Source: Deltaproteobacteria bacterium
Lineage (GTDB): Bacteria; CALINM01
Assembly: GCA_037442505.1 (NCBI GenBank)
Contig: JBBIPZ010000007.1
Span: 3,758-67,757 of the forward strand
Direction of reading: 5' to 3'
DNA: 64,000 nt
The position numbers were made by a program, and so were the translations under genes. The notes below the pieces were generated by a model that did no database searches, was not told the origin of the DNA, and saw nothing but the letters and a program-made list of their open reading frames with translations. Below are positions 14,460-64,000 of the stretch, piece after piece. The stretch's first letter is position 1, and each line of letters begins with the position of its first letter.

Positions 14460-14788
14460 GCTTATCACCTCCTTTCTTTTAGTAGTTGCTAAAAATCTGT
14501 TTTTTTGACCTCCCTCCCTAAATATCAGACTTTTTAGCACCATCTTTTATTTAGTTTTCAATTTAAAAAATTGTTTTATTTTTGTCAATAAAAAAATGTT
14601 CTATTCCTATGATATTTTTTTCACAAGCGTTTAATTGATTAAAATTAAGATATTTTTTGTAATAAAAAAATATGTAAAATATTTCATATGGTTATGCAAA
14701 ATCATAAAAAGTAAACAACTTTAGAAAAATTAAGTCAAAAAAAGATGACGTTGATTTTTCCAATCTAACTTTGATAGACTTTACAGTG

Positions 14789-15559
14789 ATGAAAGTTTTT
14801 GTCGCGATATTTGTATTTTTTTTCGGAGCAGTAATTGGGAGCTTTCTCAATGTATGCATTTATCGTATTCCTCGCAAGATATCCATTGTTTTCCCTTCAT
14901 CATTTTGTCCTGCATGTAATAAGCCAGTTCCTACGCAATATAACATCCCTCTTTTAGGTTTTATCATATTATCTGGAAAATGCAAGTTTTGTGGGAAAAA
15001 AATTTCTTTTCGTTATCCATTTGTTGAGTTTGTTACCGGTTTAGCTGCGTTATTTTGTTATATATCGTTCACACCTTTACATGCACTTATCAACTTCTGT
15101 TTTATATCAGTACTTATTATTATTACATTTATAGACCTTGATTTTCAGATAATACCAGATGTGTTAAGTTTGCCAGGGATTGTAATAGCAGCTCTTATTT
15201 CATACTTTTTTTTTAACAGAAGTTTCACTTCAATTATCGTTGCTATTTTGGTGGGTGGTGGGATATTTTATTTAATTGGCGTTGTTTATGAGTTTCTTGC
15301 GAAACGTGAAGGTTTGGGTGGTGGGGACGTAAAACTTCTGGCATTTTTCGGTGCCTTCTTGGGGCTTAAATCTATACCTTTTATCATTTTAGTTAGTTCT
15401 TTAACTGGGACGATTGTTGGTGTATATCTTATGCTTTTTAAAGGTAAAAATTCTACGTTTGCAATTCCTTTTGGTCCCTTTCTATCTGGCGCTGCCTTTT
15501 TATACCTGTTTTTTGGTGAAAAGATAATAAACTGGTATTTAACCTTGTTTTTAAGATGA
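14789..15559 (+). CDS. pilD: Type IV prepilin peptidase (A24 family)
   Basis: MKVFVAIFVFFFGAVIGSFLNVCIYRIP, then a CPACNK...CKFCGK zinc-binding N-domain and a polytopic C-domain. The ORF could instead start at TTG 14771. Confidence 0.85.
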   Translation: MKVFVAIFVFFFGAVIGSFLNVCIYRIPRKISIVFPSSFCPACNKPVPTQYNIPLLGFIILSGKCKFCGKKISFRYPFVEFVTGLAALFCYISFTPLHALINFCFISVLIIITFIDLDFQIIPDVLSLPGIVIAALISYFFFNRSFTSIIVAILVGGGIFYLIGVVYEFLAKREGLGGGDVKLLAFFGAFLGLKSIPFIILVSSLTGTIVGVYLMLFKGKNSTFAIPFGPFLSGAAFLYLFFGEKIINWYLTLFLR

Positions 15560-18656: not shown

Positions 18657-19867
18657 TGCCAAAATTTTTTTATAGGGCAAGAGATAGGCAGGGAAAACTT
18701 TACGAAAGCTTTGTTGAAGTCCCATCAAGAGAAGATGCTTTAAAGATTGTTGAAAACGAGGGGTTAATTCCGCTTGAGGTTAAAGCATCAAGGCATTTTT
18801 TTTTAAAATTTAATTTAAATTTGTTTTCTTCAATATCTAAAACAGACATCATACTTTTTTCAACACAGCTTGCAACCATGCTAAAGGCTGGACTTCCTAT
18901 TACAAGGTCTTTAAAGGCGATACAAACACAGATAAAGTATAAACGTTTTCGAGATGCGATAGATAATATAGTACAAAATATCGAAAGGGGAAGGTCATTT
19001 TACAATGCACTAAGCCAATACCCGCAGTTTTTTGACAGTATTTATGTTGCAACTGTTCAGATAGGAGAGGTTAGTGGAAACCTACCCGAAATATTATTGA
19101 GGCTTGCTGAAAGCATCGAGAAAGACGAGTCTGTGAAACAGAAGATAAAGAACGCAACCCTTTATCCCAAAATGGTTGTAGGGGCAATATTTGTAGCAAT
19201 TATCATTTTGATAACCTTTGTAATTCCCAAGTTTGCCGCGCTTTATAAAGGGTTTAAGGTACAGTTACCTTTGCCTACAAGAATATTGATTGGCATTTCT
19301 GGTTTTGTTCAACATCATTGGCTAATCATCTTACTTTTTTTTCTATGTATTGTAGGCTGTTTCATATATTTAAAGCACACTTCAACTGGAAGAAGGATTT
19401 ACGATCCAATGATATTAAAACTGCCAATTTTTGGTGATTTGGCACTTAAAATAATTATGGTTAGATTTTCACGTTTTTTTTCATTATTATTTTCAAGTGG
19501 TGTGGTTATAACAAATATTCTCGATTTGTTGAAAGATGCGCTTGGTAACGTCGTTTTTAAGAAAAAGGTGCAGGATATTAAAAAAGATATTCTTGCTGGT
19601 GTGAGCTTTAGTGAGGCTGTTAGTAAGACGGGTTTTTTTACGCCACTGGTTCAGGAGATGATTAATGTGGGCGAAGAAACTGGTTCACTTGACGAGATGC
19701 TAAAGAAAGTGTCAGATTTTTACGAAAATGAGTTAGACTTTACTATCAAAAATTTGACCACTTTGATTGAACCGATTATGCTTGTTGTGATATTTGGTAT
19801 GGTATTATTCCTTGCTTTAAGCGTTTTTCTGCCAATGTGGGATATGGTAAAGTTTGTTAAAACATGA
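18656..19867 (+). CDS. pilC: Type IV pilus / T2SS inner-membrane platform protein (GspF/PilC)
   Basis: 403 aa, duplicated T2SSF domains. Start overlaps the pilB stop. Confidence 0.85.
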   Translation: MPKFFYRARDRQGKLYESFVEVPSREDALKIVENEGLIPLEVKASRHFFLKFNLNLFSSISKTDIILFSTQLATMLKAGLPITRSLKAIQTQIKYKRFRDAIDNIVQNIERGRSFYNALSQYPQFFDSIYVATVQIGEVSGNLPEILLRLAESIEKDESVKQKIKNATLYPKMVVGAIFVAIIILITFVIPKFAALYKGFKVQLPLPTRILIGISGFVQHHWLIILLFFLCIVGCFIYLKHTSTGRRIYDPMILKLPIFGDLALKIIMVRFSRFFSLLFSSGVVITNILDLLKDALGNVVFKKKVQDIKKDILAGVSFSEAVSKTGFFTPLVQEMINVGEETGSLDEMLKKVSDFYENELDFTIKNLTTLIEPIMLVVIFGMVLFLALSVFLPMWDMVKFVKT

Positions 19868-20241
19868 TGAAGTTCGAGCGCTATAAAAGATACACCTCTT
19901 TTGAAAACGCCCTCGTGTTTATCTTTATCCTGATAGTAGCAACATTATTGTTTTCGTATTTCAAAAAGTATGAAGATGTTATAAAAACTAAAGTTGCGAA
20001 TGAACAATTGTATCAGATAAATACTGCCATAGTCATTTATACTATAACTAAGGGTAAATTTCCTGATGATATAAAACAGCTTGTTACTGAAAATATGGTA
20101 ACTATTTCTGGCGAAACGTTTTTTAACAAAAAGTATATAGAAGGTTTGACTTTTGATAATGAAGGCTTCCCAATAGATCCGTGGGGTAATAGATACCGGT
20201 ATGATAAAGCTAAGGGATTGGTGTTCTTAGAAAAAAAGTAA
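19864..20241 (+). CDS. GspG-like pseudopilin / pilin with an atypical class III signal
   Basis: Hydrophobic N-terminal helix and a C-terminal FPIDPWGNRYRY motif (the GspG DPWG signature). The canonical G-F-T-L-I-E cleavage motif is absent (KRYTSFENAL). Confidence 0.4.
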   Translation: MMKFERYKRYTSFENALVFIFILIVATLLFSYFKKYEDVIKTKVANEQLYQINTAIVIYTITKGKFPDDIKQLVTENMVTISGETFFNKKYIEGLTFDNEGFPIDPWGNRYRYDKAKGLVFLEKK

Positions 20242-20678: not shown

Positions 20679-21656
20679 ATGTTATCGTATATAGAAAAGT
20701 TAAAAAATCAGGTGTTAGAAGGTTATGAGATAGCTCAATTAGAAGCGCTAAACTTATTTGAAGAGGGAATTAAATCACCATTTTATCTTTTGGCTGCAGC
20801 ATCAGATATAAGAGAACGATTCAAAGGCAAAAAGATAAATCTCTGTGGCATTGTTAATGCAAAGTCGGGTAGATGTGCGGAAAACTGCAAATTTTGCGCT
20901 CAATCATCTTACTATAAAACAGATGCGCCTTCTTATCCATTAATTTCTGCAGATGATATAATCTCACAGGCAAAGGCAGCAAAAGACAACGGAGCGCATA
21001 TGTTTGGTATCGTTACAAGTGGAACTAAAATTAGTAGTGACGCCGAGTGGGACGAAATTTTTATCGCTGTAAAAGGTATAAAAGAGGCTGGGATTTTACC
21101 CTGTGCTTCGCTTGGTATTCTTGACTATGATAAGGCTCTTGCTTTGAAAGAATCAGGGCTTTTTAGATATCACCATAATTTAGAAACCTCAAAATCTTTT
21201 TTCCCAAACATTTGTTCAACACATGATTATGAAGAAGATGTTAAAACCGTTGAAGCAGCAAAGGCAGCCGGGTTATCCACGTGTTGTGGTGGAATAATAG
21301 GTTTAGGCGAGACGATAGAACATCGGATAGAATTGGCAATCCTGCTTAGAGAACTTGATGTTGATTCTGTGCCGATAAACATACTCAATCCCATTGTTGG
21401 CACACCACTTGAAAATGCAAAAGCTTTATCTCCTATTGAAATTTTATGTAGTATCGCTATTTTTCGTTTTATTTTGCCCCAAAAAGATATTAAACTATGT
21501 GGCGGTAAGGAAAAAAATTTAAGACAGCTTTTGCCGCTTGGTATTATTGCAGGCTGTAACTCATTAATGACTGGCAACTATCTTACTACTGCAGGGAGGG
21601 ATACCGCTCTGGATTACGAAATGATTGCTGACTTAGGGCTTAAGGCTGTTATTTAA
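20679..21656 (+). CDS. bioB: Biotin synthase
   Basis: Radical SAM CxxxCxxC (CAENCKFC) and the BioB family pattern. Confidence 0.9.
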   Translation: MLSYIEKLKNQVLEGYEIAQLEALNLFEEGIKSPFYLLAAASDIRERFKGKKINLCGIVNAKSGRCAENCKFCAQSSYYKTDAPSYPLISADDIISQAKAAKDNGAHMFGIVTSGTKISSDAEWDEIFIAVKGIKEAGILPCASLGILDYDKALALKESGLFRYHHNLETSKSFFPNICSTHDYEEDVKTVEAAKAAGLSTCCGGIIGLGETIEHRIELAILLRELDVDSVPINILNPIVGTPLENAKALSPIEILCSIAIFRFILPQKDIKLCGGKEKNLRQLLPLGIIAGCNSLMTGNYLTTAGRDTALDYEMIADLGLKAVI

Positions 21657-21668
21657 TGGGGGCAAATT

Positions 21669-23513
21669 ATGATGGCAAAAGGAACGCACAAGATTCTTTA
21701 TCTTGGTGCAGATGATGTTTTTTTTAAAGAGCTTCAAGATATTTTTGTAAGTGAACCTGTTTTTTTGGAACATTTTTTAAGAGAGAGTCTTTCTTTTGCT
21801 ATCCTGCCACAAAAGGATTACTCTGTCATAATCGTTGACGCAGATTATAAAACCCCACTCACCTTTATAGAAACGCTTAGAGTGATATACAAAGATTTCT
21901 TTAAACCTTACATAATGCTTCTTGCTAAATTGGAACAGGTAAAATCTCTAAAAAATTTGATAAACTTTAAAAACTATCCTGATGATATCTGCCTTAAAAA
22001 CATCGATAAAAAATGTATTGCAAACCAGATACTTTTTGGTTGTTCGAGTTCTATATGCACAAAAGATGCTTTATGTAGCGCTGGGGAAATACAAAAAGGC
22101 GATTTTAAAGATTTATCTTATGGTAGTTTGTTGTTCAAGCTTTATAAGGAAAAATTTACTGGGAGACTGATAATAGACAGCTTTTCTGATAGGGCTGTTT
22201 TTTCATTTTTAAATGGGGAGCCTGTTGATATTAAATTCAACAGGATACTATTTACATTGGGAAGGATATTGCTAAGGCGTGGCCTTTTAGATGAAGAGAC
22301 ATATTTAAAATCTATGGAGTATATGAATGAAAAAAATATTAGGCATGGCGATGCATTGGTTGAGATGGGTATACTTTCAACATCAACAATAGTTGATATG
22401 ATTGAAGAGCAGTATAAAGAAAAATTGATGTTTTTCTTCTCAAAATTTAATGGCAATTTTTTGCTTGTCCAGAGTGATGTTGAGTTTACTATTCACCCGA
22501 AAGTGGACGTCTTTAATCTAATTTATGCAGGCGTAATGCAGTATTGTTCTGCTAAATATCTTACAGAGAAGTTTTTACTATATAAAAATAAATTCGTTGC
22601 ATTAACTGAAAACTTTACACTCTTTAATAAAAAACTCCCATTTACGGAGAATGAGCATCTACTGTTATCAAGATTAGAGTCTGCACCAGAATTGATAGAA
22701 GTTTTTGAAAGCACGTCACTCGATTTAACTCATATTTTAAAACTTTTCGAGATAATCACAATTTGTGAGATGGCAAAATTTGCTGATACTAAAGCAGATG
22801 CATTGGAGATTACTAAATGGACACAGCCAAAGATGATAGAATTAAAAAATAAGATTAATGCTGATTATATGAGTCTTAAAGAAAAAAACTATTATGAAGT
22901 GTTAGGATTAAAACAGGATTGTGATAACTCGGAGATAAAAAAACGTTACTTTGAGAAGGTGAAAAATTACCATCCTGATACTTACAATCATTTGGGATTG
23001 GACAAGGATTTGATGTCTAAGGTAAATGAAATGTTCCAGTTGATACAGATAGCTTATCAAACTCTCTCAAATCAAGAATCAAGAAAAAATTATGATGCTA
23101 TAATATCTTCAACTTTTGTGAACGAAGCGATGAAGAAGAGTAGTGACATTATCAATGCAGAGATTGCATTTAAAAAAGGAGAGTTCTTATTTAAGAAAAG
23201 AAATTATAAGGATGCAGAAGGCTACTTTAGAACAGCTGTAAATCTTTATTGGAAAGAACCAGAATATCTAATTAGCCTTGCTGTTACCCTGATGTTTATT
23301 GATAATAAAAAAATAGAAAAGCTGGAAGAAGCGAAATCTCTGCTCGAAAAGGCTATTTATATTAACCCTTATTATGACAAGTCTTATCATTATCTTGGTA
23401 TTTTTTATAAACTTACCGGAAATACAGCTGAGGCAAAGGCTTGCTTAAAAAAGGCGGTTGAGCTAAACCCTTCAAACAAAGAAGCGATCATGGAGTTAAA
23501 AAGCCTTGAGTAG
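21669..23513 (+). CDS. Multi-domain protein with a degenerate receiver-like N-terminus, a DUF4388-like domain, a J domain and C-terminal TPR repeats
   Basis: KILYLGADD...VIIVDADYKT (REC-like), LLFKLYKEKFTGRLII...NGEPVDI (DUF4388-like), YYEVLGL...KKRYF...HPD (J domain with HPD), TPR-like C-terminus. Sits between bioB and bioF. Confidence 0.6.
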   Translation: MMAKGTHKILYLGADDVFFKELQDIFVSEPVFLEHFLRESLSFAILPQKDYSVIIVDADYKTPLTFIETLRVIYKDFFKPYIMLLAKLEQVKSLKNLINFKNYPDDICLKNIDKKCIANQILFGCSSSICTKDALCSAGEIQKGDFKDLSYGSLLFKLYKEKFTGRLIIDSFSDRAVFSFLNGEPVDIKFNRILFTLGRILLRRGLLDEETYLKSMEYMNEKNIRHGDALVEMGILSTSTIVDMIEEQYKEKLMFFFSKFNGNFLLVQSDVEFTIHPKVDVFNLIYAGVMQYCSAKYLTEKFLLYKNKFVALTENFTLFNKKLPFTENEHLLLSRLESAPELIEVFESTSLDLTHILKLFEIITICEMAKFADTKADALEITKWTQPKMIELKNKINADYMSLKEKNYYEVLGLKQDCDNSEIKKRYFEKVKNYHPDTYNHLGLDKDLMSKVNEMFQLIQIAYQTLSNQESRKNYDAIISSTFVNEAMKKSSDIINAEIAFKKGEFLFKKRNYKDAEGYFRTAVNLYWKEPEYLISLAVTLMFIDNKKIEKLEEAKSLLEKAIYINPYYDKSYHYLGIFYKLTGNTAEAKACLKKAVELNPSNKEAIMELKSLE

Positions 23514-24675
23514 TTTTGAAATTCAGATACGAGAAGAACTTGAAAGTTTATCTGCTGATGGGCTTTTGCGAACTGTTGATAGTATTGAAACAGGGTGTTT
23601 TTCTCAAATCACGATTGATGGGCAAACATTTCTAAATTTTTGCTCAAATAATTATCTTGCTCTAAATGGACATCCTTATATCGCAAATGCAATGAAAAAA
23701 GCAATTGATCTTTGGGGAACATCCTGTTCTGCATCAAGATTAATTGTTGGCAGTATTAAACTTTTTGAAGAGGCTGAAGAGCGCTTAGCTGGTTTTAAAA
23801 GAAAAGAAGCTGCTTTAATCTTCCCTTCAGGGTATCAAGCCAATGTCTCGGTTATTGCTACCCTGGCATCGTCTGAAGATAACATATTTAGTGATCAGCT
23901 AAATCATGCAAGCATTATTGATGGTTGTAAGTTAAGCAGGGCAAAATTATCTATTTATAGACATAGAGATGTAAACAACTTAGAAGATTTGTTAAAAAAT
24001 TCAAAATCAAGAAGAAAGATTATCGTAACAGATGGTGTCTTTAGTATGGATGGTGATATTGCTCCTCTTAAAGAGATAAGCGAGCTTGCAGACAGGTACG
24101 ATGCAGTAGTTATTGTTGATGATGCTCATGCAACAGGTGTTTTGGGAAAGGACGGTAAAGGCACATTAGAACTGTTTGACTTACAACAAAAGAAAAACAT
24201 AATGGTGTTGGGTACAGGAGGGAAGGCCTTAGGCGTTGGTGGAGCATTTTTTTGTTGTCCTGACTATATAAAGCAGTATCTGATCAATAAATCGAGAGGT
24301 TTTATTTACACTACTGCCACTGTTCCTGCAATTCCCGCCGGGCTTATGGCTTCCTTGGATGTAATAGTTAATGAACCAGATAGACGAAAAAGACTACATG
24401 AGCTGTCTAATTATTTTCATCAGAGATTAAAGGCAGAAGGATTTATGACTTCCAAAACACCTTCCCATATATTGCCACTAATTATTGGAGACAATCAAAA
24501 GGTAATAGATATGGCATTGATTCTAAGAAAAAACGGCATATATGTTAAACCTATTAGATTTCCTACCGTCCCAAAGGGCACCGAGCGAATAAGATTTAGC
24601 CTGACCTCACATCACACAAAAGAAGATGTTGATAAGGTTATTGACATAATAAAATCATATATTTTATTGCGTTAA
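23506..24675 (+). CDS. bioF: 8-amino-7-oxononanoate synthase (PLP-dependent)
   Basis: AONS family pattern, PLP lysine region (SMDGDIAPL). TTG start overlapping the upstream stop. Confidence 0.8.
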   Translation: MSSFEIQIREELESLSADGLLRTVDSIETGCFSQITIDGQTFLNFCSNNYLALNGHPYIANAMKKAIDLWGTSCSASRLIVGSIKLFEEAEERLAGFKRKEAALIFPSGYQANVSVIATLASSEDNIFSDQLNHASIIDGCKLSRAKLSIYRHRDVNNLEDLLKNSKSRRKIIVTDGVFSMDGDIAPLKEISELADRYDAVVIVDDAHATGVLGKDGKGTLELFDLQQKKNIMVLGTGGKALGVGGAFFCCPDYIKQYLINKSRGFIYTTATVPAIPAGLMASLDVIVNEPDRRKRLHELSNYFHQRLKAEGFMTSKTPSHILPLIIGDNQKVIDMALILRKNGIYVKPIRFPTVPKGTERIRFSLTSHHTKEDVDKVIDIIKSYILLR

Positions 24676-24686
24676 AAGAGGTTGTT

Positions 24687-26030
24687 ATGAATATTAGAGA
24701 GAAAGATAAAGCGTATCTATGGCATCCATTTACGCAAATGAGAGATTGGTTGAGTGAAGAACCACTTGTTATCGAAAGAGGTGTGGGTAACTATCTTATT
24801 GATGATAAAGGAAATAAATATCTCGATGGCGTTTCTTCATTATGGGTAACTGTTCATGGACATAATCATCCTAAGATTAATGAGGCGATAAAAAATCAAC
24901 TTGACAAAATTGCACATTCTACAATGCTTGGGCTTACCAATCCCAAAGCGGTAGATTTGGCGGAAAAACTTATAAGTATAGTGCCTATGGGATTGAGAAG
25001 GGTGTTTTATTCCGACAACGGTTCCACATCAGTTGAGATTGCTTTAAAGATGGCTTTTCAGTATTTTCAACACAAAGGTAAGTTGTCCCGTACTAAATTT
25101 GCGTATCTAAGTAATGCCTATCATGGAGATACTATTGGAGCTGTGAGCGTAGGTGGGATAGAACTTTTTCACAGCACATTTAAGCCCTTACTTTTTGAAG
25201 GTTTCAAATTGCCATCACCTTATTGTTACCGTTGTGAGCTTGGTAAAGATAGAGAAAATTGCGGAAAAGACTGTTTGAAGAAAACTAAAGAGATACTTGA
25301 GAAAAACAGAGAAAAAATTGCAGCATTAATTATGGAGCCTCTTGTGCAGGGTGCTGCTGGAATGATAACACAGCCAGAAGGGTATCTAAGAGAAATAGCG
25401 GATATTTGTAAAGAAAACAATATACTATTGATACTCGATGAAGTTGCTACAGGCTTTGGTAGAACTGGCAAGATGTTTGCCTGCCAACACGAAGATGTTA
25501 CGCCCGATTTCCTTTGTGTTTCTAAAGGTATAACAGGCGGTTATCTGCCACTTGCAGCTACCATAACGACAGAAGATGTCTTCAATGCGTTTTTAGGGGA
25601 ATATAGCGAGTTTAAGACATTTTTTCATGGACATACATATACTGGAAACCCTTTAGCGTGCGCCGCAGCTATAGCAAATTTAGAGTTGTTCAACACTGAA
25701 CACACTTTAGAAAAAATGCAGGATAACATATCGTTTTTTGCGAAAAAGTTGGAGATGTTTAAGTCATATAAATATGTTGGTGAAGTGAGACAGCGCGGAT
25801 ATATGGTTGGCATAGAGATCGTAAAAGACAAACGAACAAAAGAGATGTTTCCTGTAGAAGACAAAGTTTGTATAAAAATCTCTGCAAAGGCAAGGGATTT
25901 TAATATTATCACGCGCCCCTTGGGTAATGTTCTTGTAATGATGCCACCGCTTGGTATTACAAAACAGGAGATAGAAATTTTATGCGAAGGTATCTACAAT
26001 AGTATGCTTATGATTCTGGAGAAAAGATGA
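24687..26030 (+). CDS. bioA: Adenosylmethionine-8-amino-7-oxononanoate aminotransferase
   Basis: WHPFTQM N-terminus and class III aminotransferase motifs. Confidence 0.9.
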   Translation: MNIREKDKAYLWHPFTQMRDWLSEEPLVIERGVGNYLIDDKGNKYLDGVSSLWVTVHGHNHPKINEAIKNQLDKIAHSTMLGLTNPKAVDLAEKLISIVPMGLRRVFYSDNGSTSVEIALKMAFQYFQHKGKLSRTKFAYLSNAYHGDTIGAVSVGGIELFHSTFKPLLFEGFKLPSPYCYRCELGKDRENCGKDCLKKTKEILEKNREKIAALIMEPLVQGAAGMITQPEGYLREIADICKENNILLILDEVATGFGRTGKMFACQHEDVTPDFLCVSKGITGGYLPLAATITTEDVFNAFLGEYSEFKTFFHGHTYTGNPLACAAAIANLELFNTEHTLEKMQDNISFFAKKLEMFKSYKYVGEVRQRGYMVGIEIVKDKRTKEMFPVEDKVCIKISAKARDFNIITRPLGNVLVMMPPLGITKQEIEILCEGIYNSMLMILEKR

Positions 26031-26674
26031 GATACTTCGTTACTGGAACTGATACTGGTGTCGGCAAAACGTATGTTTTATCGTTAATTCTCAAATTTTT
26101 TATTGCAAACGGTTATTATCCATCTGTGATGAAACCTATAGAGACAGGATGTAGTACATATAAAGGCGAACTTATTCCAGAAGATGGTTTGCAGCTTTCT
26201 GATATTGTTAAAATGAGCAACCAGTTAGATAAGGTTGTGCCTTATAGATTTGAGACACCAGTAGCACCTTATGTTGCATCACTTTTAGAAAATAAAGAGA
26301 TAGATTTAAATAACATAAAACAGCTTTCTGATAATCTCAAAGAGCCTTTATTTGTAGAAGGAGCTGGTGGACTAATGGTACCTATCAAGAGAAATTTTTT
26401 TATGATAGACCTTGTAAACTATTTAAATCTTGAAGTGATATTTATTTCTCCACTTCGCTTAGGAACAATAAATCAGACGCTGCTGAATATAGAAGCAATG
26501 GAAAGGCGTAACCTTAAGATAAAAGGCATAATTCTAAACGATACAGACGGTATAGTAACACCAGCAACAAGAACAAACCCTGAGGTATTAAAAGAGCTTC
26601 AACCTTATCCTGTAATTGCGGTTGTGCCTTACAAATGTTTAGCTTTACCTGATTTTTCTGCATTGTTGCGGTAA
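26027..26674 (+). CDS. bioD: Dethiobiotin synthetase
   Basis: P-loop GTDTGVGKT. ATGA overlap with bioA. Confidence 0.8.
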   Translation: MRYFVTGTDTGVGKTYVLSLILKFFIANGYYPSVMKPIETGCSTYKGELIPEDGLQLSDIVKMSNQLDKVVPYRFETPVAPYVASLLENKEIDLNNIKQLSDNLKEPLFVEGAGGLMVPIKRNFFMIDLVNYLNLEVIFISPLRLGTINQTLLNIEAMERRNLKIKGIILNDTDGIVTPATRTNPEVLKELQPYPVIAVVPYKCLALPDFSALLR

Positions 26675-54130: not shown

Positions 54131-56533
54131 GTGAAAAAAGAAGTTTTTAAGATAGAGGGCATTCACTGTGCTTCTTGTATTTCCCGTATAGAAAATGCGC
54201 TTCTTAAACTTAATGGTGTAAAGAGTGTAAATGTTAGTTTGGCAAATGGAGTGACTACAGTAGTTTATGACGATGCTTTGCTTACACCATTGGTTTTTAA
54301 GTCTGAAGTTGAAGCTTTAGGTTATAAATTTCTTATAAAAAAAGAAAAAAAACTTATCATCAATGTCACTGGTTTACATTGTGCCTCTTGTGTTAGCAGG
54401 TTACAAGATCGTTTGAAAGAACAAATAGGTGTAATTGATGCAACTGTAAATCTTGCTACATCTAAGGCTTTTATCGTATTTTTCCCAAGCGAAATAAGTA
54501 TTGATAAAATAAAGAGTGTCATTATAGCTACTGGATATAGTGTTGCTGAACTTGAAGAAATTGATCCTTCAATTGAAGATATTAGGACATATAAAAAGAA
54601 TTTTAGTTATGCCGCTTTGTTTTCACTTCCTTTGTTTATCATAACGATGGCAGAACATTTTTACTCTTACAAAATTATTACAAACGATATACTGTATTCT
54701 ATTTTTCAATTTCTTTTGGCAACACCTGTTATTTATTTTGGCAGAAATTTTTATATTAATGGTATCAAATCTGTTTTAAAGGCTAAAACCGCAACTATGG
54801 ATACACTGGTAGCCTTAGGGACAGGGGCAGCCTATGTTTATAGCGTTTATGTGACGATTATGATTTTATTAAATAACAGTAATTTTAGTTCTATGCACCT
54901 TTATTATGAAACATCTGCTGTGCTTATATCGTTTATCTTGTTGGGCAGGTTTTTAGAGGCAAAGGCAAAAGGGAAAACTGGAGAAGCAATAAAAAGGCTA
55001 ATGGGATTGACGCCAAAAACTGCTACTGTAATAAGAGATACTACTGAACTTATTGTTCCGATAGATGAGGTATTGAAGGAAGACATAGTTTTAATTAAAC
55101 CAGGCGATAGAATTCCGGTGGATGGAGAAGTCATAGATGGCTATTCTTATATAGATGAATCAATGATTACTGGCGAAAGTGTTCCCGTAGAAAAGAAGGT
55201 TGGAGATAAGGTGATAGCAGGTACGATTAACGGAAATAAGATATTGAAGATAAAGGCTGTTTCTGTAGGCGCAGAAACATTGCTTTCTCAGATAATAAGA
55301 CTTGTTGAGGAATCGCAAGCCTCTAAAGCGCAAATTCAAAAGATTGCTGATAAGGTTAGTTCTGTATTTGTGCCAGTAGTTTTTATTATAGCTTTAGTCA
55401 GTTTTTTTACATGGATTGTCTTGGATTATGATACTGAATTTGCCTTTAGTTCGTTTATTTCTGTCTTAATTATTGCATGTCCATGCTCACTTGGTTTAGC
55501 TACGCCTACGGCTATTATTGTTGGAACTGGAATGGGAGCTGAGAGAGGTATATTATTTAAAAATGCAGAGGCGTTAGAAAAACTGGCAAAAGTAGAAATG
55601 TTGCTTATGGATAAAACTGGGACTCTAACATATGGTAAACCGGAAGTTGTTGATATAGTTAGTTATGGTATCAGTAGTGATGAATTGCTTAAAATTGCTG
55701 CTTCAATTGAAAAGGTTGCAACGCACCCTCTTGCAGATGCAGTAGTTAGAAAGTATTCTAACTCAGATTTCTATGAAATTTCTAATTTTGACACATTGCC
55801 TGGAATGGGCGTCCTGGCTACGATAAATAATGAAAAATTTTATTTAGGCTCAATAAATTTAATGAAAGAAATAGGCATAAAAATTGAAAATATTGTAAAT
55901 GATGTTTATTCTACAATTTATATTGCAAATGAGCAAAGTAGCGGAAAAAAGGATTTATTAGGTTATATTTCTGTATTTGACAAAATCAAAGAAGATGCTG
56001 AAGAGTTTGTCAAAAAAATGACTCAATTAGGAGTTAAGCTTTTTATATTAACAGGCGATAATGAAAAAGTTGCAGAGTATGTAGCCAAAACACTTGGAAT
56101 TGAGTATTATAAGGCAAACGTTTTACCTCACGAAAAACAACAAGTAGTTCTTGCCGAAAAAGAGAGATATAAATTTGTTGGTATGGTTGGTGATGGAATA
56201 AATGATTCTCCTGCCCTTGCAGCATCTGATGTCGGTATAGCATTTGGGTCTGGCACGGATATCGCTACGGAAACAAGCGACATTGTTTTGGTGAAACCTA
56301 ATTTGATGGGAATATATAAATTGTTACTGTTAAGTAAATTTACAATTAGCAAAATTAAACAAAACCTTTTTTGGGCTTTTATTTATAATTCAATTGGCAT
56401 ACCTTTGGCAGCTGGGTTACTTTACCCTTTTTTTGGTATTCAATTGAATCCAATGTTTGCAGGAGTTGCTATGGCTATGAGTTCTGTCTCAGTTGTCACA
56501 AATTCGTTGTTAATGAAGAGGAAACATATATGA
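54131..56533 (+). CDS. copA: Copper-translocating P1B-type ATPase with two N-terminal HMA domains
   Basis: Two GxHCASC metal-binding sites, CPC in the TM segment, DKTGT phosphorylation site, GDGINDSPAL hinge. GTG start with SD GGAGGAG. Confidence 0.9.
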   Translation: MKKEVFKIEGIHCASCISRIENALLKLNGVKSVNVSLANGVTTVVYDDALLTPLVFKSEVEALGYKFLIKKEKKLIINVTGLHCASCVSRLQDRLKEQIGVIDATVNLATSKAFIVFFPSEISIDKIKSVIIATGYSVAELEEIDPSIEDIRTYKKNFSYAALFSLPLFIITMAEHFYSYKIITNDILYSIFQFLLATPVIYFGRNFYINGIKSVLKAKTATMDTLVALGTGAAYVYSVYVTIMILLNNSNFSSMHLYYETSAVLISFILLGRFLEAKAKGKTGEAIKRLMGLTPKTATVIRDTTELIVPIDEVLKEDIVLIKPGDRIPVDGEVIDGYSYIDESMITGESVPVEKKVGDKVIAGTINGNKILKIKAVSVGAETLLSQIIRLVEESQASKAQIQKIADKVSSVFVPVVFIIALVSFFTWIVLDYDTEFAFSSFISVLIIACPCSLGLATPTAIIVGTGMGAERGILFKNAEALEKLAKVEMLLMDKTGTLTYGKPEVVDIVSYGISSDELLKIAASIEKVATHPLADAVVRKYSNSDFYEISNFDTLPGMGVLATINNEKFYLGSINLMKEIGIKIENIVNDVYSTIYIANEQSSGKKDLLGYISVFDKIKEDAEEFVKKMTQLGVKLFILTGDNEKVAEYVAKTLGIEYYKANVLPHEKQQVVLAEKERYKFVGMVGDGINDSPALAASDVGIAFGSGTDIATETSDIVLVKPNLMGIYKLLLLSKFTISKIKQNLFWAFIYNSIGIPLAAGLLYPFFGIQLNPMFAGVAMAMSSVSVVTNSLLMKRKHI

Positions 56534-57900
56534 GCTCTGTTCAACCAATAATTACGGACATTATCGAAAAGGACGAGTTAATGGAGCTTACATCTGATTT
56601 TTCTAAAAAGTTTGGTTTTTGTGCCTTTATTCTTGATTCCAAAGGAAAAATGATTGTCGAAAAACAGTTTATACCAGAGTACTGCGAACGTATTTTGAGT
56701 GTTAAGGAAAATGCTACTAAGTGTTATAAAGATACCATTTCAAAGATAATGTTAAACAAAGTGCTTTATGATGAATGTTGGGCTGGCCACCGTAAAATTA
56801 TTGTTCCTATTAAGTTCATGAACAATGTTATAGCTTACTGGATTACCTGTGGTATAGCATCAGATGTAAATGAGAAGTTTGTGCAAGCCTTAGCAAACAT
56901 GATTGACAGCTTTATAAACAAGTTTTTAAAATCTTACGAAAAGTGGTTTAATGAAAGAGAGTTTGCTACAAAGATTTTAAATAACCTTATTTCTCAGCAA
57001 GATTATGATCAGGTACTCGAAAAAATTGTATCTTCTGCTACAAAGATACTAAAAACGGATAGGACAACACTTTTTATATACGATGGGGGAAAGTTGGTAA
57101 GTAGAATTGCAGAAGGGCTCGAGCAGGAGATTGCATTAAATTTAGGGGAAGGAATAGCAGGAACCTGTGCGTTAAATAGAGAAATAATTGCTATTGATGA
57201 AGTTAAACCTGAAATTGGCATAAAATCGATTATAAAAGAGTATGAAGTTAAAAATCTAATTTGTGCACCAATAATATTCAAAAAAAAGTTGTTGGGTGTA
57301 ATAGAGTCTTTTAATAAAGGAACTTCTTTCACGATGAAAGATAGAAAACATATATCATATTTGGCAGATGCAGCTGCAATTGCACTTAATAATGCTCAAA
57401 CATTTGTTGCATTGCAAAGAATGTCAATATTGGACCCACTTACCCAACTTTACAACAGAAACTATTTTATTAGATGTCTCGAAAAGGAAACTACGAGACT
57501 GAACAGGTACTCTGGAGAGTTATCCCTTATGTTTATTGATCTTGATGACTTTAAAAAGTTTAATGACTTGTATGGTCATACTGTAGGAGATATTGTTCTT
57601 AAAGAGTTTTCAAACCTTATAAAAAACAACCTAAGAGACGCTGATATTGCTGCAAGGTTTGGTGGAGAAGAGTTTGTTGTAATGTTACCAAATACTGATA
57701 GAGAGGGAGCTTATAAAACAGCAGAAAGATTACAACAATCAATTAGAAATACTGAAATTGCGGGACATAAAGTTAGTGCGAGCATTGGTATCGCCTGTTA
57801 TCGGTTAGGGCTTACTGCTAAAATGCTAATTGATAGGGCTGACAAAGCTATGTATCATGTTAAGAGAACACAAAAGGGTACTATAAGCTTCTGGGATTAG
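56530..57900 (+). CDS. Diguanylate cyclase with PocR-like and GAF sensory domains (PocR-GAF-GGDEF)
   Basis: N-terminal Cys pattern C..C...C.AGHRKIIVPI (PocR-like), a GAF-like middle, and RFGGEEF in an intact GGDEF domain. ATGA overlap with copA. Confidence 0.8.
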   Translation: MSSVQPIITDIIEKDELMELTSDFSKKFGFCAFILDSKGKMIVEKQFIPEYCERILSVKENATKCYKDTISKIMLNKVLYDECWAGHRKIIVPIKFMNNVIAYWITCGIASDVNEKFVQALANMIDSFINKFLKSYEKWFNEREFATKILNNLISQQDYDQVLEKIVSSATKILKTDRTTLFIYDGGKLVSRIAEGLEQEIALNLGEGIAGTCALNREIIAIDEVKPEIGIKSIIKEYEVKNLICAPIIFKKKLLGVIESFNKGTSFTMKDRKHISYLADAAAIALNNAQTFVALQRMSILDPLTQLYNRNYFIRCLEKETTRLNRYSGELSLMFIDLDDFKKFNDLYGHTVGDIVLKEFSNLIKNNLRDADIAARFGGEEFVVMLPNTDREGAYKTAERLQQSIRNTEIAGHKVSASIGIACYRLGLTAKMLIDRADKAMYHVKRTQKGTISFWD

Positions 57901-59161: not shown

Positions 59162-60223
59162 TTAAAGATGCTCAACAACTAAGTTGCCAACTTCTTCAGT
59201 TGTGTAGCCCATTTTACCGGCTGCCAAACTTTTAAGTTTTTCAGTGATAACTTTTACCACGGCATTTTCAACTTTGTTCGCAGCGGATTCCTCTCCTAAA
59301 TATCTAAGTAACATCTCGCCTGCAAGAATGCAAGCAATTGGGTTTATAACGTTCATACCGGTATATTTTGGCGCAGAGCCTCCTATTGGTTCAAACATCG
59401 AAACGCCTTCTGGATTGATATTGCCACCAGCAGCAACGCCCATTCCGCCCTGAATCATAGCACCCAAATCAGTAATAATATCTCCAAACATATTGTCTGT
59501 AACAATCACGTCGAACCATTCTGGATTTTTTACCATCCACATACAGCAAGCATCAACATGAACGTAATCAGTTTGGATATCAGGGTACTCTTTTGCAACT
59601 TCGTTAAACGTTCTTTCCCACAAATCAAAAGCAAAGGTAAGTACATTTGTTTTACCACAGAGTGTCAATTTTTTTCTTTTGTTGCGTTTTCTTGTATATT
59701 CGAATGCAAAACGGATACATCTTTCAACACCTTTACGGGTATTAATAGATTCCTGAATTGCAACCTCATCCTTAGTTCCTTTCTTTAATACGCCACCCGC
59801 CCCTGCGTATAAACCTTCGGTATTTTCCCTGATTACGACAAAATCAATGTGCTCAGGTCCTTTATCTTTTAAAGGGCAGTCAACATTAGGATAAAGTTTG
59901 ATAGGTCTTAAGTTAATGTATTGATCAAGTTCAAATCTTAGCTTTAATAGAATACCCTTCTCTAAAATACCGGGTTTGACATTCGGGTGTCCAATCGCTC
60001 CTAAATAGATTGCATCAAATTTTTTTAGTTCTGTTGTCGCATCTTCTGGTAAAATGACTCCTGTTTTTAAATAGTTGTCTCCACCATAATTAAAATAAGT
60101 AAAATCAAAGTTAAAACCTGTTTTTTCAGAAACAGCTTTTAAAACTTTAACTCCTTCTCTTATAACTTCTGGTCCAGTACCATCCCCTGGTATTACAGCA
60201 ATTTTGTAAGTTTTCTTTGACAT
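59162..60223 (-). CDS. leuB: 3-isopropylmalate dehydrogenase family (LeuB-like; could be a tartrate/homoisocitrate DH paralog)
   Basis: IAVIPGDGTGPEV and NMFGDIITDLGAMIQGG signatures; 353 aa. No leuCD lies nearby. Confidence 0.7.
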   Translation of the reverse strand: MSKKTYKIAVIPGDGTGPEVIREGVKVLKAVSEKTGFNFDFTYFNYGGDNYLKTGVILPEDATTELKKFDAIYLGAIGHPNVKPGILEKGILLKLRFELDQYINLRPIKLYPNVDCPLKDKGPEHIDFVVIRENTEGLYAGAGGVLKKGTKDEVAIQESINTRKGVERCIRFAFEYTRKRNKRKKLTLCGKTNVLTFAFDLWERTFNEVAKEYPDIQTDYVHVDACCMWMVKNPEWFDVIVTDNMFGDIITDLGAMIQGGMGVAAGGNINPEGVSMFEPIGGSAPKYTGMNVINPIACILAGEMLLRYLGEESAANKVENAVVKVITEKLKSLAAGKMGYTTEEVGNLVVEHL

Positions 60224-60298
60224 AACTTAAACCTCCTGCCAGCGATTAATTTACCTCAAAAATTTGAAGTAAATTACTTTGGAATTGTAAAAAAGAAG

Positions 60299-60371
<73 letters not shown>

Positions 60372-60411
60372 ACTGTGTGAAATACTAATCTTAACCAAGT
60401 TGCGAGTAAAA

Positions 60412-60521: not shown

Positions 60522-60884
60522 ATGTTAACGCTAAATTCTACCATAAAGGAAATTTTAGTTAGAGAGAACTCAGTAGAAGCTGCAATAATCCTTGATAAAG
60601 ATGGTATTGTTGTTGCAGAAGAGTCTAAATCTGGAGATAAAAAAGCTCAAGAGCTTGCTATAGAGTATGCCTCTGTTATGAAACAGATACTTAAGGTAAC
60701 AGACTACTTAAACATAGGGGCATTGGAAGAGATCCTTGTATATACTGAAAAAAGTATTATCGTAATAAGATTAATAACGAGAGAGTACTACCTGATTTTA
60801 ATAACCAACACTGATGGTAATATTGGTAAAGCAAAATATCTGGCAAAATTGACAGGTGAAAGGTTAGAAAAGGAGTTTAAGTGA
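60522..60884 (+). CDS. Roadblock/LC7 (MglB-like) domain protein
   Basis: 120 aa; EAAIILDKDGIVVA...ILVYTEKSIIVIRL resembles the Roadblock fold pattern. Confidence 0.65.
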   Translation: MLTLNSTIKEILVRENSVEAAIILDKDGIVVAEESKSGDKKAQELAIEYASVMKQILKVTDYLNIGALEEILVYTEKSIIVIRLITREYYLILITNTDGNIGKAKYLAKLTGERLEKEFK

Positions 60885-61321
60885 AGATACTCGTGATAAA
60901 TGGACCAAACTTGAATATGTTAGGTAAACGTGAGAAAGAGTTTTATGGAGATATAAATCTTGATACGATAAACTCAAATCTTACTAAAATTGCCGAATCC
61001 TTATCTGTTAGTGTAGATTTTTTTCAGAGTAATAGCGAAGGTTCTATAATTGATAGGATACATCAAGCTACAGATGTTGATGGGATGGTAATTAATTTAG
61101 GTGCATATACTCATACAAGCATCGCAATCAGGGATGCATTATTGTTATCTAAAAAGCCTTTTGTTGAAGTGCACCTTTCAAATATCTATAGTAGAGAAAT
61201 ATTCAGACAAAAATCTTTAATTAGCGATATTGCTATAGGGGTTATAGCAGGCTTTAAAGAAGAAAGTTATTATCTTGCACTTAACGCACTTGTTAAGTAT
61301 TTAAAATCTAATAAATTTTAA
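60881..61321 (+). CDS. aroQ: Type II 3-dehydroquinate dehydratase
   Basis: MKILVINGPNLNMLGKRE...YG...H motifs. Confidence 0.85.
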   Translation: MKILVINGPNLNMLGKREKEFYGDINLDTINSNLTKIAESLSVSVDFFQSNSEGSIIDRIHQATDVDGMVINLGAYTHTSIAIRDALLLSKKPFVEVHLSNIYSREIFRQKSLISDIAIGVIAGFKEESYYLALNALVKYLKSNKF

Positions 61322-61322
61322 A

Positions 61323-62363
61323 ATGGACTTTGAGAAAAGAATTTATAACGTTCAGAATGATATTTTGAGCAAAAAAAATAATGGTTTGCTTATTTTAGAC
61401 GTAGAAAATATCTTTTATTTAACTGGCTTCAGAGGGTCTTTTGCGGCGTTAGTTATAGTAAGGGATAAGGCTTATTTGCTTGTTGATGGTAGGTATTACG
61501 AAAAGGCAAAAATGGTTAGTAAGCATTGTAGAGTCGTATTATTTGAAAATTTATTCTTAGAAATAAATAAAATTTTGACTTCTGAGAAAATTAATGATTT
61601 ATATTTTGATGAGGAGGACATTAGAGTAGCGTTTCTTTCTCGAATAAAAAGGGAATTGAAAGAAGGCGTTAATGTAATCCCGACAAAAGATTGTTATATT
61701 AGAAAGCTTCGTATGGTAAAGGATGATTGTGAGCTTGAAATTATCAGAAAGGCTGTTAAAAAATCTAAAAAGATAATTGATAAATTTATAAAAAATTATT
61801 TAAAAACAGGAATTTCTGAGAAAGCATTGGCAGCTCAGCTTGAGTATATGATGAAAACAGAAGCAGATGGTATAAGTTTTGATACTATCGTTGCAAGTGG
61901 CCAAAATTCGTCTTTGCCACATGCCACACCTACGGAAAGAAAACTTTCATCACGAGATGTAGTGTTGATCGATTATGGGTTGAAGTGGAAAGGTTACTGT
62001 ACAGATCATACAAGAACTGTATTTTTAGGTGCGAACAGTTTAGAAAAATATTATAATATAGTACAAAAAGCAGTTGAAATAGGTCTGAGTTTTATTAAAC
62101 CAGATAATCCAATTAAACTTGTAGATGAGAGTATCAGGAGTTTTTTTGAAAAACAGGGTTTGCTTAAACATTTTTTACATTCTTCGGGACATGGAGTGGG
62201 AATTAATGTACACGAACCCCCTACTCTAAGTTATAAGACAGAAGGGGTTTTTAAAGAGGGAATGGTGTTAACCATTGAACCGGGGCTTTACTTTGAGAAG
62301 ATAGGCGGAATAAGATTAGAAGAAATGTTTGTGGTTACAAAAACTGGCTATGAAATATTATAA
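61323..62363 (+). CDS. pepP: M24B Xaa-Pro aminopeptidase
   Basis: Creatinase-like N-terminal domain followed by M24 metal ligands (D...D...HGVGINVHE...E...E). Confidence 0.8.
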   Translation: MDFEKRIYNVQNDILSKKNNGLLILDVENIFYLTGFRGSFAALVIVRDKAYLLVDGRYYEKAKMVSKHCRVVLFENLFLEINKILTSEKINDLYFDEEDIRVAFLSRIKRELKEGVNVIPTKDCYIRKLRMVKDDCELEIIRKAVKKSKKIIDKFIKNYLKTGISEKALAAQLEYMMKTEADGISFDTIVASGQNSSLPHATPTERKLSSRDVVLIDYGLKWKGYCTDHTRTVFLGANSLEKYYNIVQKAVEIGLSFIKPDNPIKLVDESIRSFFEKQGLLKHFLHSSGHGVGINVHEPPTLSYKTEGVFKEGMVLTIEPGLYFEKIGGIRLEEMFVVTKTGYEIL

Positions 62364-62377
62364 AAAATGGAGGTTAT

Positions 62378-62938
62378 ATGTATTCAACAGCAGATTTTAG
62401 AAAAGGCTTAAAGATAGTGTTTAATAATGAGCCTTACGAAATTATTGATTTTCAACATGTTAAGATGGGGAGGGGTGGCGCCATCGTAAGAACAAAAATG
62501 AAAAGCTTGAAAACGGGATACGTTATTGAAAATACTTTTAGGTCGGGTGAAAAGGTTGAAAAACCCGAACTTGAGGAACGTCCCATGCAGTATTTATATA
62601 AAACTGACGGAGGGCTTGTTTTTATGGACAACGAATCATTTGAACAGATTACAATTTCGGAAGATATGATTGGTGATGGTATAAATTATCTTGTAGAGAA
62701 TATGAATGTAGATGTTAATTTTTATCATGGAAAACCAATAGGTGTTGAAATACCAATGTTTGTTGAATTGAAAGTTGTGGAAACTGTTCCGGGAATTAAA
62801 GGGGATACTGCAAGTGGTGGCTCTAAGCCTGCAAAACTTGAGACAGGAGCAGTTATTCAGGTACCACTTTTCGTTAATGAAGGTGAAGTAATAAAAATCG
62901 ACACAAGGACAGGCACATATCTTGAAAGAGTAAGATAA
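62378..62938 (+). CDS. efp: Elongation factor P (Arg at the loop-tip position 32)
   Basis: 186 aa EF-P pattern. Loop HVKMGRGGAIVRTK aligns with B. subtilis VKPGKGSAFVR, placing R32 (AGG, 62471-62473) at the modified-residue position. Confidence 0.95.
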   Translation: MYSTADFRKGLKIVFNNEPYEIIDFQHVKMGRGGAIVRTKMKSLKTGYVIENTFRSGEKVEKPELEERPMQYLYKTDGGLVFMDNESFEQITISEDMIGDGINYLVENMNVDVNFYHGKPIGVEIPMFVELKVVETVPGIKGDTASGGSKPAKLETGAVIQVPLFVNEGEVIKIDTRTGTYLERVR

Positions 62939-62950
62939 AAAGGGGGGGTA

Positions 62951-63325
62951 ATGGCTTTTGCCGATATTAAATATTCAAATAACCATATGTGGGTTAAATT
63001 CAAAAGGGATAGAGCCGTAATTGGTGTTACAGAAAATCTGTTAGAAGGTGTAAACGAAATTGTTCTTGTGTCACTTCCAAAAGCTGGAGAAGAGATTACT
63101 AAAGACGATCTATTTGGCACCCTTGAAACGGGTTCAGATATCATAGATTTAGTTGCTCCTTTAAGTGGTGAGGTTGTAAGGGTAAACAACCTTGTCCAAG
63201 AAGATCCAGAAGTGTTGCTTGAAGATCCTTATGGTGATGGCTGGATACTGGAGATTGAATATTCTGACGAGGAAGAGGCCGAAAATCTTTTAGATCTTGA
63301 AGATTACGAGGCGATGACAGAGTGA
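62951..63325 (+). CDS. GcvH-family (glycine cleavage H / lipoyl-domain) protein lacking the conserved lipoyl-lysine
   Basis: Strong GcvH pattern (HMWVK...VIGVTENLLEGVNEIVLVSLPKAGEE...DLVAPLSGEVVRVN...DPYGDGWI). At the ESVKA position the sequence reads ETGSD, so Ser replaces Lys. Confidence 0.8.
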   Translation: MAFADIKYSNNHMWVKFKRDRAVIGVTENLLEGVNEIVLVSLPKAGEEITKDDLFGTLETGSDIIDLVAPLSGEVVRVNNLVQEDPEVLLEDPYGDGWILEIEYSDEEEAENLLDLEDYEAMTE

Positions 63326-63328
63326 AAA

Positions 63329-64000
63329 ATGGCGTTTAACAAAGCAAAAGTTCTTGAAGACATACAAAAGTATGTACAGAGAGGCCAGATCGACAAGGCT
63401 ATTGAAGAGTATGAACGAGTACTTAAAATAGATCCTCGTGATTATAAACTTCGTCAGAAGTTGGGCGACCTTTATCTTAGAAAGGGCAAGAACGCAGAAG
63501 CAGTAAATCAATACATCCAGGTTGCAGAATATTATATAAAAGATGGATTTTATCTTAAGGCGATTGCTTTATACAGTCAAATCTTAAGAACAGATCCGTC
63601 CAAACTTTCTATATATGAAAAACTTGCTGAGTTGTATAAGAAGCAGGGCTTGATAGGCGAAGCTGTAGCAAGATTAAGAATTCTTGCTGAGATATACGAA
63701 AAACAACGAAACCTTTCTGATGCAATGCAATCATGGGAAAAGATTATCAATCTGGACCCCGATAATGTCATTTACAGGGGCAAGTTAGTCGAATTTTATT
63801 TAAAGCAAGGGCTGGCTACAAGAGCTGAAGAAAAACTGAGGCAGGCTGTTGACTATTTTAAGAGCAAAGGTAGGTATGACGAAGTAGAAAAATTGATGTC
63901 ACATTTTCCCGGTGTGCTTGAGGAAGACAAGACTGTTGTTCTAAACTTAGCACGGACTCTTTTTTCGGAAGGTAAATATATTGAAGCGTTAGAAAAATTA
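63329..64000 (+). CDS. TPR-repeat protein (3' partial, runs off the window)
   Basis: ATG at 63329, 3 nt after the gcvH-like stop. Repeated TPR-like helices (AEYYIKDGFYLKAIALYSQIL...). Confidence 0.5.
   Translation, partial: MAFNKAKVLEDIQKYVQRGQIDKAIEEYERVLKIDPRDYKLRQKLGDLYLRKGKNAEAVNQYIQVAEYYIKDGFYLKAIALYSQILRTDPSKLSIYEKLAELYKKQGLIGEAVARLRILAEIYEKQRNLSDAMQSWEKIINLDPDNVIYRGKLVEFYLKQGLATRAEEKLRQAVDYFKSKGRYDEVEKLMSHFPGVLEEDKTVVLNLARTLFSEGKYIEALEKL

Follow-up and report, generated by a model that had tools for sequence, protein, structure and literature searches.

The GcvH-like open reading frame described here lies near the end of the window, the whole 64-kb stretch of DNA that was analysed, at positions 62951-63325 of the forward strand. 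It encodes a protein of 124 residues that belongs to the Pfam family GCV_H and does not have the lipoyl lysine. The gene is part of a cluster of genes on the same strand. The first gene of the cluster encodes a Roadblock/LC7 protein of the MglB-type fold (60522-60884, forward; Pfam Robl_LC7, E=1.2e-8). It is followed by aroQ, for a type II 3-dehydroquinase (60881-61321, forward), and pepP, for an Xaa-Pro aminopeptidase (61323-62363, forward), which were identified from Pfam matches on orthologous loci, namely DHquinase_II for aroQ and Creatinase_N with Peptidase_M24 for pepP. Directly upstream of the GcvH-like gene is efp, encoding elongation factor P (EF-P; 62378-62938, forward; TIGR00038, 266.9 bits, over the cutoff).

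A spacer of 12 nt (62939-62950, forward) separates efp from the GcvH-like gene. As read from the sequence, it contains a G-rich ribosome-binding site, and the GcvH-like ATG is preceded by a strong Shine-Dalgarno sequence (aaGGGGGGGta). The TGA stop codon of the gene occupies positions 63323-63325, and the ATG of a tetratricopeptide repeat (TPR) gene, recognized by Pfam TPR families, starts at 63329. The gap between the two genes is thus the 3 nt of the original prediction. The TPR gene runs off the window, which contains its 5' part (63329-64000, forward), corresponding to 224 codons of a protein of about 800 residues. The stretch from the Roadblock gene to the TPR gene contains no terminator-like site.

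The remainder of the window, which comes from a lineage of low G+C content (34.6%), holds a biotin operon, type IV pilus genes, two PATAN/DUF4388 proteins, and anaerobic redox enzymes. The biotin operon (20679-26674, forward) comprises bioB, a bioF-like gene, bioA, and bioD. The pilus genes are located at 14771-15559 and 16899-20241 and encode a prepilin peptidase, PilB-like and PilC-like proteins, and a pilin. The two PATAN/DUF4388 proteins are encoded at 203-1219 and 21669-23513, the second being a 614-residue DnaJ/PATAN(DUF4388)/TPR protein that sits between the bioB and aminotransferase genes. A gene for tRNA-Phe (GAA) is present on the reverse strand (60298-60371), with a perfect TTGACA-18-TATAAT promoter-like site upstream of it (60441-60412, reverse). 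An apparent open reading frame of 50 residues at 60246-60398 (reverse) is the tRNA-Phe gene read as protein.

The assignment of the protein to the GcvH family, as originally predicted, is firmly established at the levels of sequence and fold. The GcvH-like protein matches the Pfam family GCV_H (PF01597) with an E-value of 1.1e-30 (106.5 bits), and a phmmer search against H-proteins of the PDB retrieves those of T. maritima (E=1e-24) and E. coli (E=3e-24). The AlphaFold2 model has a pLDDT of 90.1 and a pTM of 0.80. When this model is compared with the PDB by Foldseek, the top matches are all H-proteins, with TM-scores of 0.88-0.92 and rmsd values of 1.0-1.5 Å. The curated models for GcvH score slightly under their cutoffs: the protein reaches 115.0 bits with NF002270, 2 bits short of the cutoff of 117, and 109.9 bits with TIGR00527, below the cutoff of 115.85. 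Scores with the models for GcvH relatives are far from the respective cutoffs, with 51.3 bits against 144 for TIGR03077 (not_gcvH, the chlamydial GcvH-like protein) and 44 bits against 150 for NF045810 (the Desulfovibrio-type GcvH-related protein).

The HMMER alignments to the T. maritima and E. coli GcvH are gapless from residue 20 to the end of the protein, pairing LETGSDIIDLVAPLSGEV of the GcvH-like protein with IESVKAAADVYAPLSGKI and AESVKAASDIYAPVSGEI. A multiple alignment with canonical GcvH sequences, which had been proposed as a check on the original prediction, gives the same result: both MAFFT and HMMER place E59-T60-G61-S62-D63 on the E-S-V-K-A motif of the lipoylation site, with no gaps over the lipoyl hairpin. 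Because the alignment is gapless and its register is fixed by the APLSGEV block, the anchor invoked in the original prediction, Ser62 falls exactly in the lipoyl-lysine column. At 63125-63139, the sequence of codons 59-63 is gaa acg ggt tca gat, as had been reported; the codon of Ser62 (tca) is at 63134-63136, and the pair Gly61-Ser62 (ggt tca, 63131-63136) occupies the columns of Val63-Lys64 in E. coli GcvH. In the AlphaFold2 model, residues 61-63 form the turn between the strands 54-60 and 64-68, which is the tip of the lipoyl hairpin. No lysine is found at residue 62 or at one residue to either side. As judged from its sequence, the window protein cannot carry lipoate at the canonical site.

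The comparison with the H-proteins from bovine, human, E. coli, T. maritima, and pea shows a common fold (TM-score of about 0.9) at 30-38% sequence identity. The GcvH-like protein is of equal length and retains the G-I-T motif, the glutamate three residues before the modification site, the A-P-L-S-G-E-V block, and the D-P-Y-G-x-G-W motif. It differs from them in the replacement of the lipoyl lysine by Ser62, and its clade has a hypervariable pair of residues in place of Val-Lys. Further differences are found at the positions of E. coli Glu12, Glu14, and Ser67, which are an asparagine, a methionine, and an isoleucine in the GcvH-like protein. The genetic context is also distinct, since the gene is located in an efp/TPR operon, with no gcvT or gcvP within 64 kb. 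Pfam searches detect no GCV_T, GDC-P, BPL_LplA_LipB, or lipoyl synthase domain in the 57 open reading frames of at least 80 residues in the window; for the genes at 54131-57900 and 59162-60223, the domains were taken from Pfam hits on an orthologous locus. The original observation that gcvT and gcvP are not adjacent thus extends to the whole 64-kb window. Likewise, no lipoylation or glycine-cleavage gene is present within 10 kb on either side of the orthologous loci.

A database search identified about 15 distinct orthologues from independent assemblies, with identities of 46-98%. They share the gene order Roadblock/LC7-aroQ-pepP-efp-GcvH-like-TPR (about 800 residues)-CCA/poly(A) polymerase-7TM-HD-ybeY-dgkA/PAP2-lnt, which is common to every orthologue with a readable contig. 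A profile search against 1.84 billion representative sequences added a single, more diverged member with the same synteny (P0125), and a metagenome scan provided two further orthologous loci. When genome contigs were scanned with the clade profile, the matches listed were dominated by canonical GcvH and the best of them had 46% identity, and none of the 80 loci listed displayed the efp/TPR synteny. GyrA is 70-95% identical within the small uncultivated lineage that carries the gene and at most 60% identical to that of Thermodesulfobacteriota and 'Deltaproteobacteria' metagenome-assembled genomes. From this drop in GyrA identity and the conserved synteny, we conclude that the GcvH-like family is an orthologous group limited to one deep, low-GC lineage.

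In a neighbor-joining tree, the clade is monophyletic and its sister is a lysine-bearing GcvH from Desulfomonile. This sister protein (P0013, loci L090/L091) has a non-acidic residue in the Glu14 column, in the sequence H-H-L-W. Its gene stands alone, with neither gcvT nor gcvP; a BioB-like radical SAM gene and a gene for a 333-residue TPR protein lie close by. P0013 may itself be an H-protein that does not take part in glycine cleavage.

The tip of the hairpin is highly variable among the orthologues, where the pair of residues reads GS, RS, NS, NK, DK, NE (A-NE), SE, ED(K), or GR. Positions 61 and 62 are the fifth and eleventh most variable of the 124 in the clade, and the second and sixth most variable in the folded core. 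The lysine column contains S, E, K, D, or R, with only few orthologues having a lysine. These residues are interspersed in the neighbor-joining tree: the serine types form two separate groups, and the lysine-bearing members are nested among lysine-less ones. As the tip residues vary freely and the serine types are not monophyletic, the serine is no signature of the family and the site is unconstrained. In this respect the original prediction has to be revised. It had spoken of serine-type homologs and proposed to check whether they form a clade, which they do not in the tree obtained here. For comparison, we used 208 GcvH hits that were selected for a lysine in the lipoyl column. The residue preceding the lysine is a valine in 83% of these lysine-bearing hits, and the glutamate three residues before it is present in all 208.

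The arm-docking cavity is altered throughout the clade. In E. coli GcvH, Glu12 and Glu14 hold the aminomethyl-lipoyl arm in the cavity, and Ser67 is a gate residue for release of the arm (PMC7733448). The window protein has N11-H12-M13-W14 (62981-62992) in place of the canonical E/D-H-E/D-W, so that Asn11 and Met13 take the positions of Glu12 and Glu14, and Ile65 (63143-63145) is in the column of Ser67. In the Glu12 column, 84% of the 208 lysine-bearing hits have a glutamate or aspartate, compared with 14 asparagines, one aspartate, and two gaps in the 17 clade sequences. The Glu14 column is acidic (D/E) in 83% of the lysine-bearing hits and never acidic in the clade, where it is a methionine, isoleucine, or threonine in 16 of the 17 sequences and a gap in the remaining one. 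Finally, the serine found in the Ser67 column of 82% of the lysine-bearing hits is replaced by isoleucine or leucine in all 17. The same cavity substitutions occur in the lysine-bearing orthologues of the clade. The replacement of the cavity residues across the whole clade, lysine-bearing members included, therefore indicates that the clade has left glycine cleavage, and shows that lysine loss belongs to a coordinated dismantling of the aminomethyl-carrier apparatus. For the few orthologues with a lysine, such as P0005 and P0006, lipoylation would still be possible in an organism that has a ligase. With a tip that evolves freely and docking residues that are now Asn, Met, and Ile, neither glycine cleavage nor a lipoyl relay is compatible with the protein, in agreement with the original proposal that it is not a functional H-protein.

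Several explanations can be considered for the persistence of such a protein. One of them, also raised in the original prediction, is that of a decoy or regulator, in which the apo-H-like protein, without being modified itself, would titrate or regulate LplA, LipB, LipM, LipA, or the T-, P-, or L-proteins by binding to them. Motifs of the H-protein surface are indeed retained, including Glu59 (position -3 relative to the site), Gly73 (+11), and the PLSGEV and DPYGDGW blocks, and the NCBIfam GcvH score is as close as 2 bits to the cutoff. We nevertheless consider this role unlikely. The lipoylation and glycine-cleavage genes are missing from the window and from the 10-kb flanks of the orthologous loci, and the cavity residues for handover to the T-protein are lost. 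Moreover, the hairpin tip is the part engaged by the ligases, and its hypervariability is unexpected for a competitive decoy.

Genes beside efp often encode EF-P modification enzymes, and the GcvH-like protein might accordingly be an associated factor that acts on or with EF-P. The efp gene adjoins the GcvH-like gene in all orthologous loci, at a distance of 8-19 nt. In addition, codon 32 of efp (62471-62473) encodes an arginine at the tip of the loop V-K-M-G-R-G-G that is invariant in all orthologues. The K-x-G-R pattern is that of EF-Ps rhamnosylated by EarP, and no EarP-like domain is found in the 64-kb window. Against such a function, the H-protein fold is not known to have catalytic activity. 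The adjacency to efp is also a weak indication, given that aroQ-pepP-efp with accB-accC after it is a widespread arrangement of housekeeping genes. Moreover, the GcvH-like gene lies closer to the TPR gene than to efp. A role in EF-P function is thus very unlikely.

The protein could also be a functionless relic, a former GcvH decaying after the loss of lipoate metabolism with its reading frame open by chance. The absence of the lysine and of the cavity residues, together with an NCBIfam score under the cutoff, would fit this possibility, which we regard as extremely improbable and which is refuted by the selection analysis. The dN/dS ratio of the window gene is 0.064 against its closest orthologue (L092; dN 0.007, dS 0.108), 0.069 against L001 (dN 0.108, dS 1.569), and 0.094 against L005 (dN 0.198, dS 2.100). 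These ratios of about 0.06-0.09 extend to dS values up to saturation; dS is saturated in most orthologue pairs, and usable ratios come from the three to four closest comparisons only. Throughout the lineage, in which GyrA identity falls to 70%, the reading frame is intact at 117-124 residues; the cluster representative P0011 is a fragment of 81 residues, and its cluster-mate P0123 is complete, with 121 residues. In addition, the clade has 37 invariant columns, the invariant residues specific to the clade being K7, K18, R21, K44, E47, D52, F55, and R77, the gene has a strong ribosome-binding site, and the AlphaFold2 model is confident. The GcvH-like gene is under strong purifying selection and is not a pseudogene.

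A canonical GcvH misread through an error of register or sequencing has nothing in its favor and next to no probability, and is already refuted, as the alignments are gapless, residue 62 is at the hairpin tip in the model, no lysine lies one residue away, an independent assembly with 97% nucleotide identity (P0002/L092) has the same GSD, P0003, P0121, L096, and P0004 read RSD or NSD, and a change from TCA to AAA or AAG takes at least two substitutions.

We therefore favor, with high confidence, an interpretation in which the GcvH-like protein is an H-protein derivative that is maintained by selection, works independently of lipoate, and is particular to one uncultivated lineage. The purifying selection, the hypervariable tip, and the replaced cavity residues support the original suggestion of a repurposed lipoyl-domain protein. 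In this interpretation, the H-protein fold, which is complete, is retained for a lipoate-independent role that relies on the rest of the fold.

Two known systems provide precedents for the use of GcvH-related proteins outside their classical function. LbpA, the lipoate-binding protein of sHdr sulfur oxidation, is a GcvH paralogue that is not interchangeable with GcvH (PMC6067878, eLife 2018). In all LbpA proteins, the lipoyl lysine is strictly conserved and there are two conserved cysteines; their genes lie in hdr-like clusters that include dedicated ligases (PMC6067878). LbpA resembles the window protein as a GcvH paralogue recruited outside glycine cleavage; the window protein differs in having no lysine at the site, no cysteine at all, and no hdr or ligase neighbors, and is thus not an LbpA. 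The second system is the GcvH-L protein of S. pyogenes and S. aureus, which undergoes lipoylation and ADP-ribosylation and whose gene is grouped with those for LplA2, SirTM, and a macrodomain protein. This protein, too, is GcvH-like, and its role is non-metabolic and specific to its operon. Its structure (PDB 5a35) is only a weak match to the window protein (E=1.5e-4, TM-score of 0.78), and SirTM, macrodomain, and LplA2 genes are absent from the GcvH-like neighborhood, which sets the window protein apart from GcvH-L as well. Ser62 was also considered as an alternative modification site, for instance for phosphopantetheine, and rejected because the residue is not conserved among the orthologues.

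The gene downstream of the GcvH-like gene is related to sgmX. The TPR fragment in the window matches NF052243 ('type IV pili formation protein SgmX') with an E-value of 2.7e-45 (155.1 bits), and its residues 4-223 are collinear with positions 2-221 of the profile. The full-length TPR orthologue on contig L092 (2881-5277) gives an E-value of 1.5e-70 (238.7 bits). Generic TPR families score well under NF052243 on the full-length orthologues, and none reaches an E-value of 1e-20 on the window fragment. The match covers only about the N-terminal 220-250 residues and does not extend to the MglA/FrzS-binding C-terminal TPRs of SgmX, and the scores stay well under the full-length cutoff of 1800 bits. 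The downstream protein thus shares the N-terminal module of SgmX without being an SgmX equivalog. Activation of type IV pili in Myxococcus is due to the eight TPRs at the N-terminus of SgmX (PMC11580455). SgmX acts as an effector of MglA, and the GTPase-activating protein of MglA, MglB, has a Roadblock fold (PMC11580455, PMC7519303, PMC7668184).

Nine loci were compared, the window and eight orthologous ones, and in eight of them the distance from the GcvH-like stop codon to the TPR start is between -1 and +4 nt, which suggests translational coupling of the two genes. The GcvH-like protein might then serve the SgmX-like TPR protein as a small subunit that binds proteins, and the operon, with its Roadblock/MglB-type first gene, might constitute a regulatory module for cell polarity or type IV pili. 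Our confidence that the GcvH-like protein works with the TPR protein is low; it is the adjacency of the genes that suggests this partnership. SgmX-like TPR genes from outside the lineage (L099-L115) have no GcvH-like neighbor; only those of L096-L098, which belong to the same lineage, have one.

In Myxococcus, accB-accC (MXAN_5767-5768) adjoin sgmX (MXAN_5766) (PMC2330069, PMC7668184). A distant high-GC relative (metagenome contig Ga0302046_10016856; L099:458-6108) has the order Roadblock-aroQ-accB-accC-SgmX-like TPR. The linkage of the Roadblock and SgmX-like genes, which flank a set of housekeeping genes, persists over very different lineages. AccB thus occupies the same operon position as the GcvH-like protein, and it shares with the GcvH family the swinging-arm carrier fold, with the modified lysine on the tip of a hairpin. 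The likeness between the two proteins is positional only, with Foldseek matches to biotinyl domains at E-values of about 0.1 or worse. The possibility that the GcvH-like protein is a diverged AccB was rejected, since both its sequence and its fold are unambiguously those of GcvH. The GcvH-like gene may simply fill a housekeeping slot in a long operon, in which case the correspondence with accB-accC may be a coincidence. A literature search found no paper naming both SgmX and glycine cleavage. Taken together, the Roadblock, SgmX-like TPR, pilus, and PATAN genes suggest a Myxococcus-like polarity/pilus module in a non-myxobacterial, thermophile-like lineage.

Absence of the lysine is not confined to the clade. 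About 50 of the best 150 representative hits to the clade profile do not have a lysine in the column, a fraction of about one third that comes from a lysine-less query profile and is therefore a biased sample, not a population estimate. Outside the clade, we counted 55 lysine-less domain rows, nearly all from these best 150 representatives, with mostly leucine, isoleucine, or valine in the Glu14 column. These proteins are not orthologous to the clade and have differing contexts and architectures. Five of them (P0124, P0128, P0139, P0142, and P0150) contain two or three tandem lysine-less GcvH-like domains. In P0124, a protein of 1391 residues, three such domains are fused to an Fe-S CCG module resembling that of GlpC/HdrD and to a GlcD-like FAD domain. 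The gene for P0127 adjoins fabD, and that for P0064 adjoins genes for a GGDEF regulator and an acyl-CoA synthetase; no common theme emerges from these neighborhoods.

The cutoff of NF002270 is passed by seven to eight of the nine lysine-less proteins tested, with P0124, P0127, P0128, P0131, P0139, P0142, P0147, and P0064 above it and P0125 below. Lysine-less proteins over a curated cutoff would therefore be named GcvH by automatic annotation. Our search for a curated family covering lysine-less GcvH-like proteins found none, and a literature search returned nothing relevant on naturally lysine-less GcvH.

The best explanation of these observations is, in our view, a lineage-specific H-protein derivative that is no longer a lipoyl carrier and that we take, with low confidence, to be a partner of the SgmX-like TPR protein; for this combined reading, the balance tips slightly in favor. 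A more far-reaching version can also be formulated. The arm-less H-protein fold, with its hydrophobic cavity, would be a dedicated partner (an adaptor, chaperone, or ligand sensor) of an SgmX-type TPR protein in a Roadblock/MglB-linked polarity/pilus module, taking the slot that accB-accC fill in Myxococcus and other relatives, and lysine-less domains would represent a large, unrecognized class of lipoate-independent binding modules annotated as GcvH. We regard this extended version as improbable.

H-proteins are treated as being defined by their lipoyl lysine. Here, strong selection maintains the fold throughout a whole orthologous group in which the lysine position drifts and the residues that dock the arm have been replaced, providing clean evolutionary evidence for a lipoate-independent function. 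Lysine-less proteins labeled as GcvH would distort metabolic reconstructions, such as those of the reductive glycine pathway and of lipoate metabolism in metagenome-assembled genomes. Should its partnership with the SgmX-like TPR protein prove real, the GcvH-like protein would be an unexpected component of bacterial polarity and pilus regulation outside Myxococcota.
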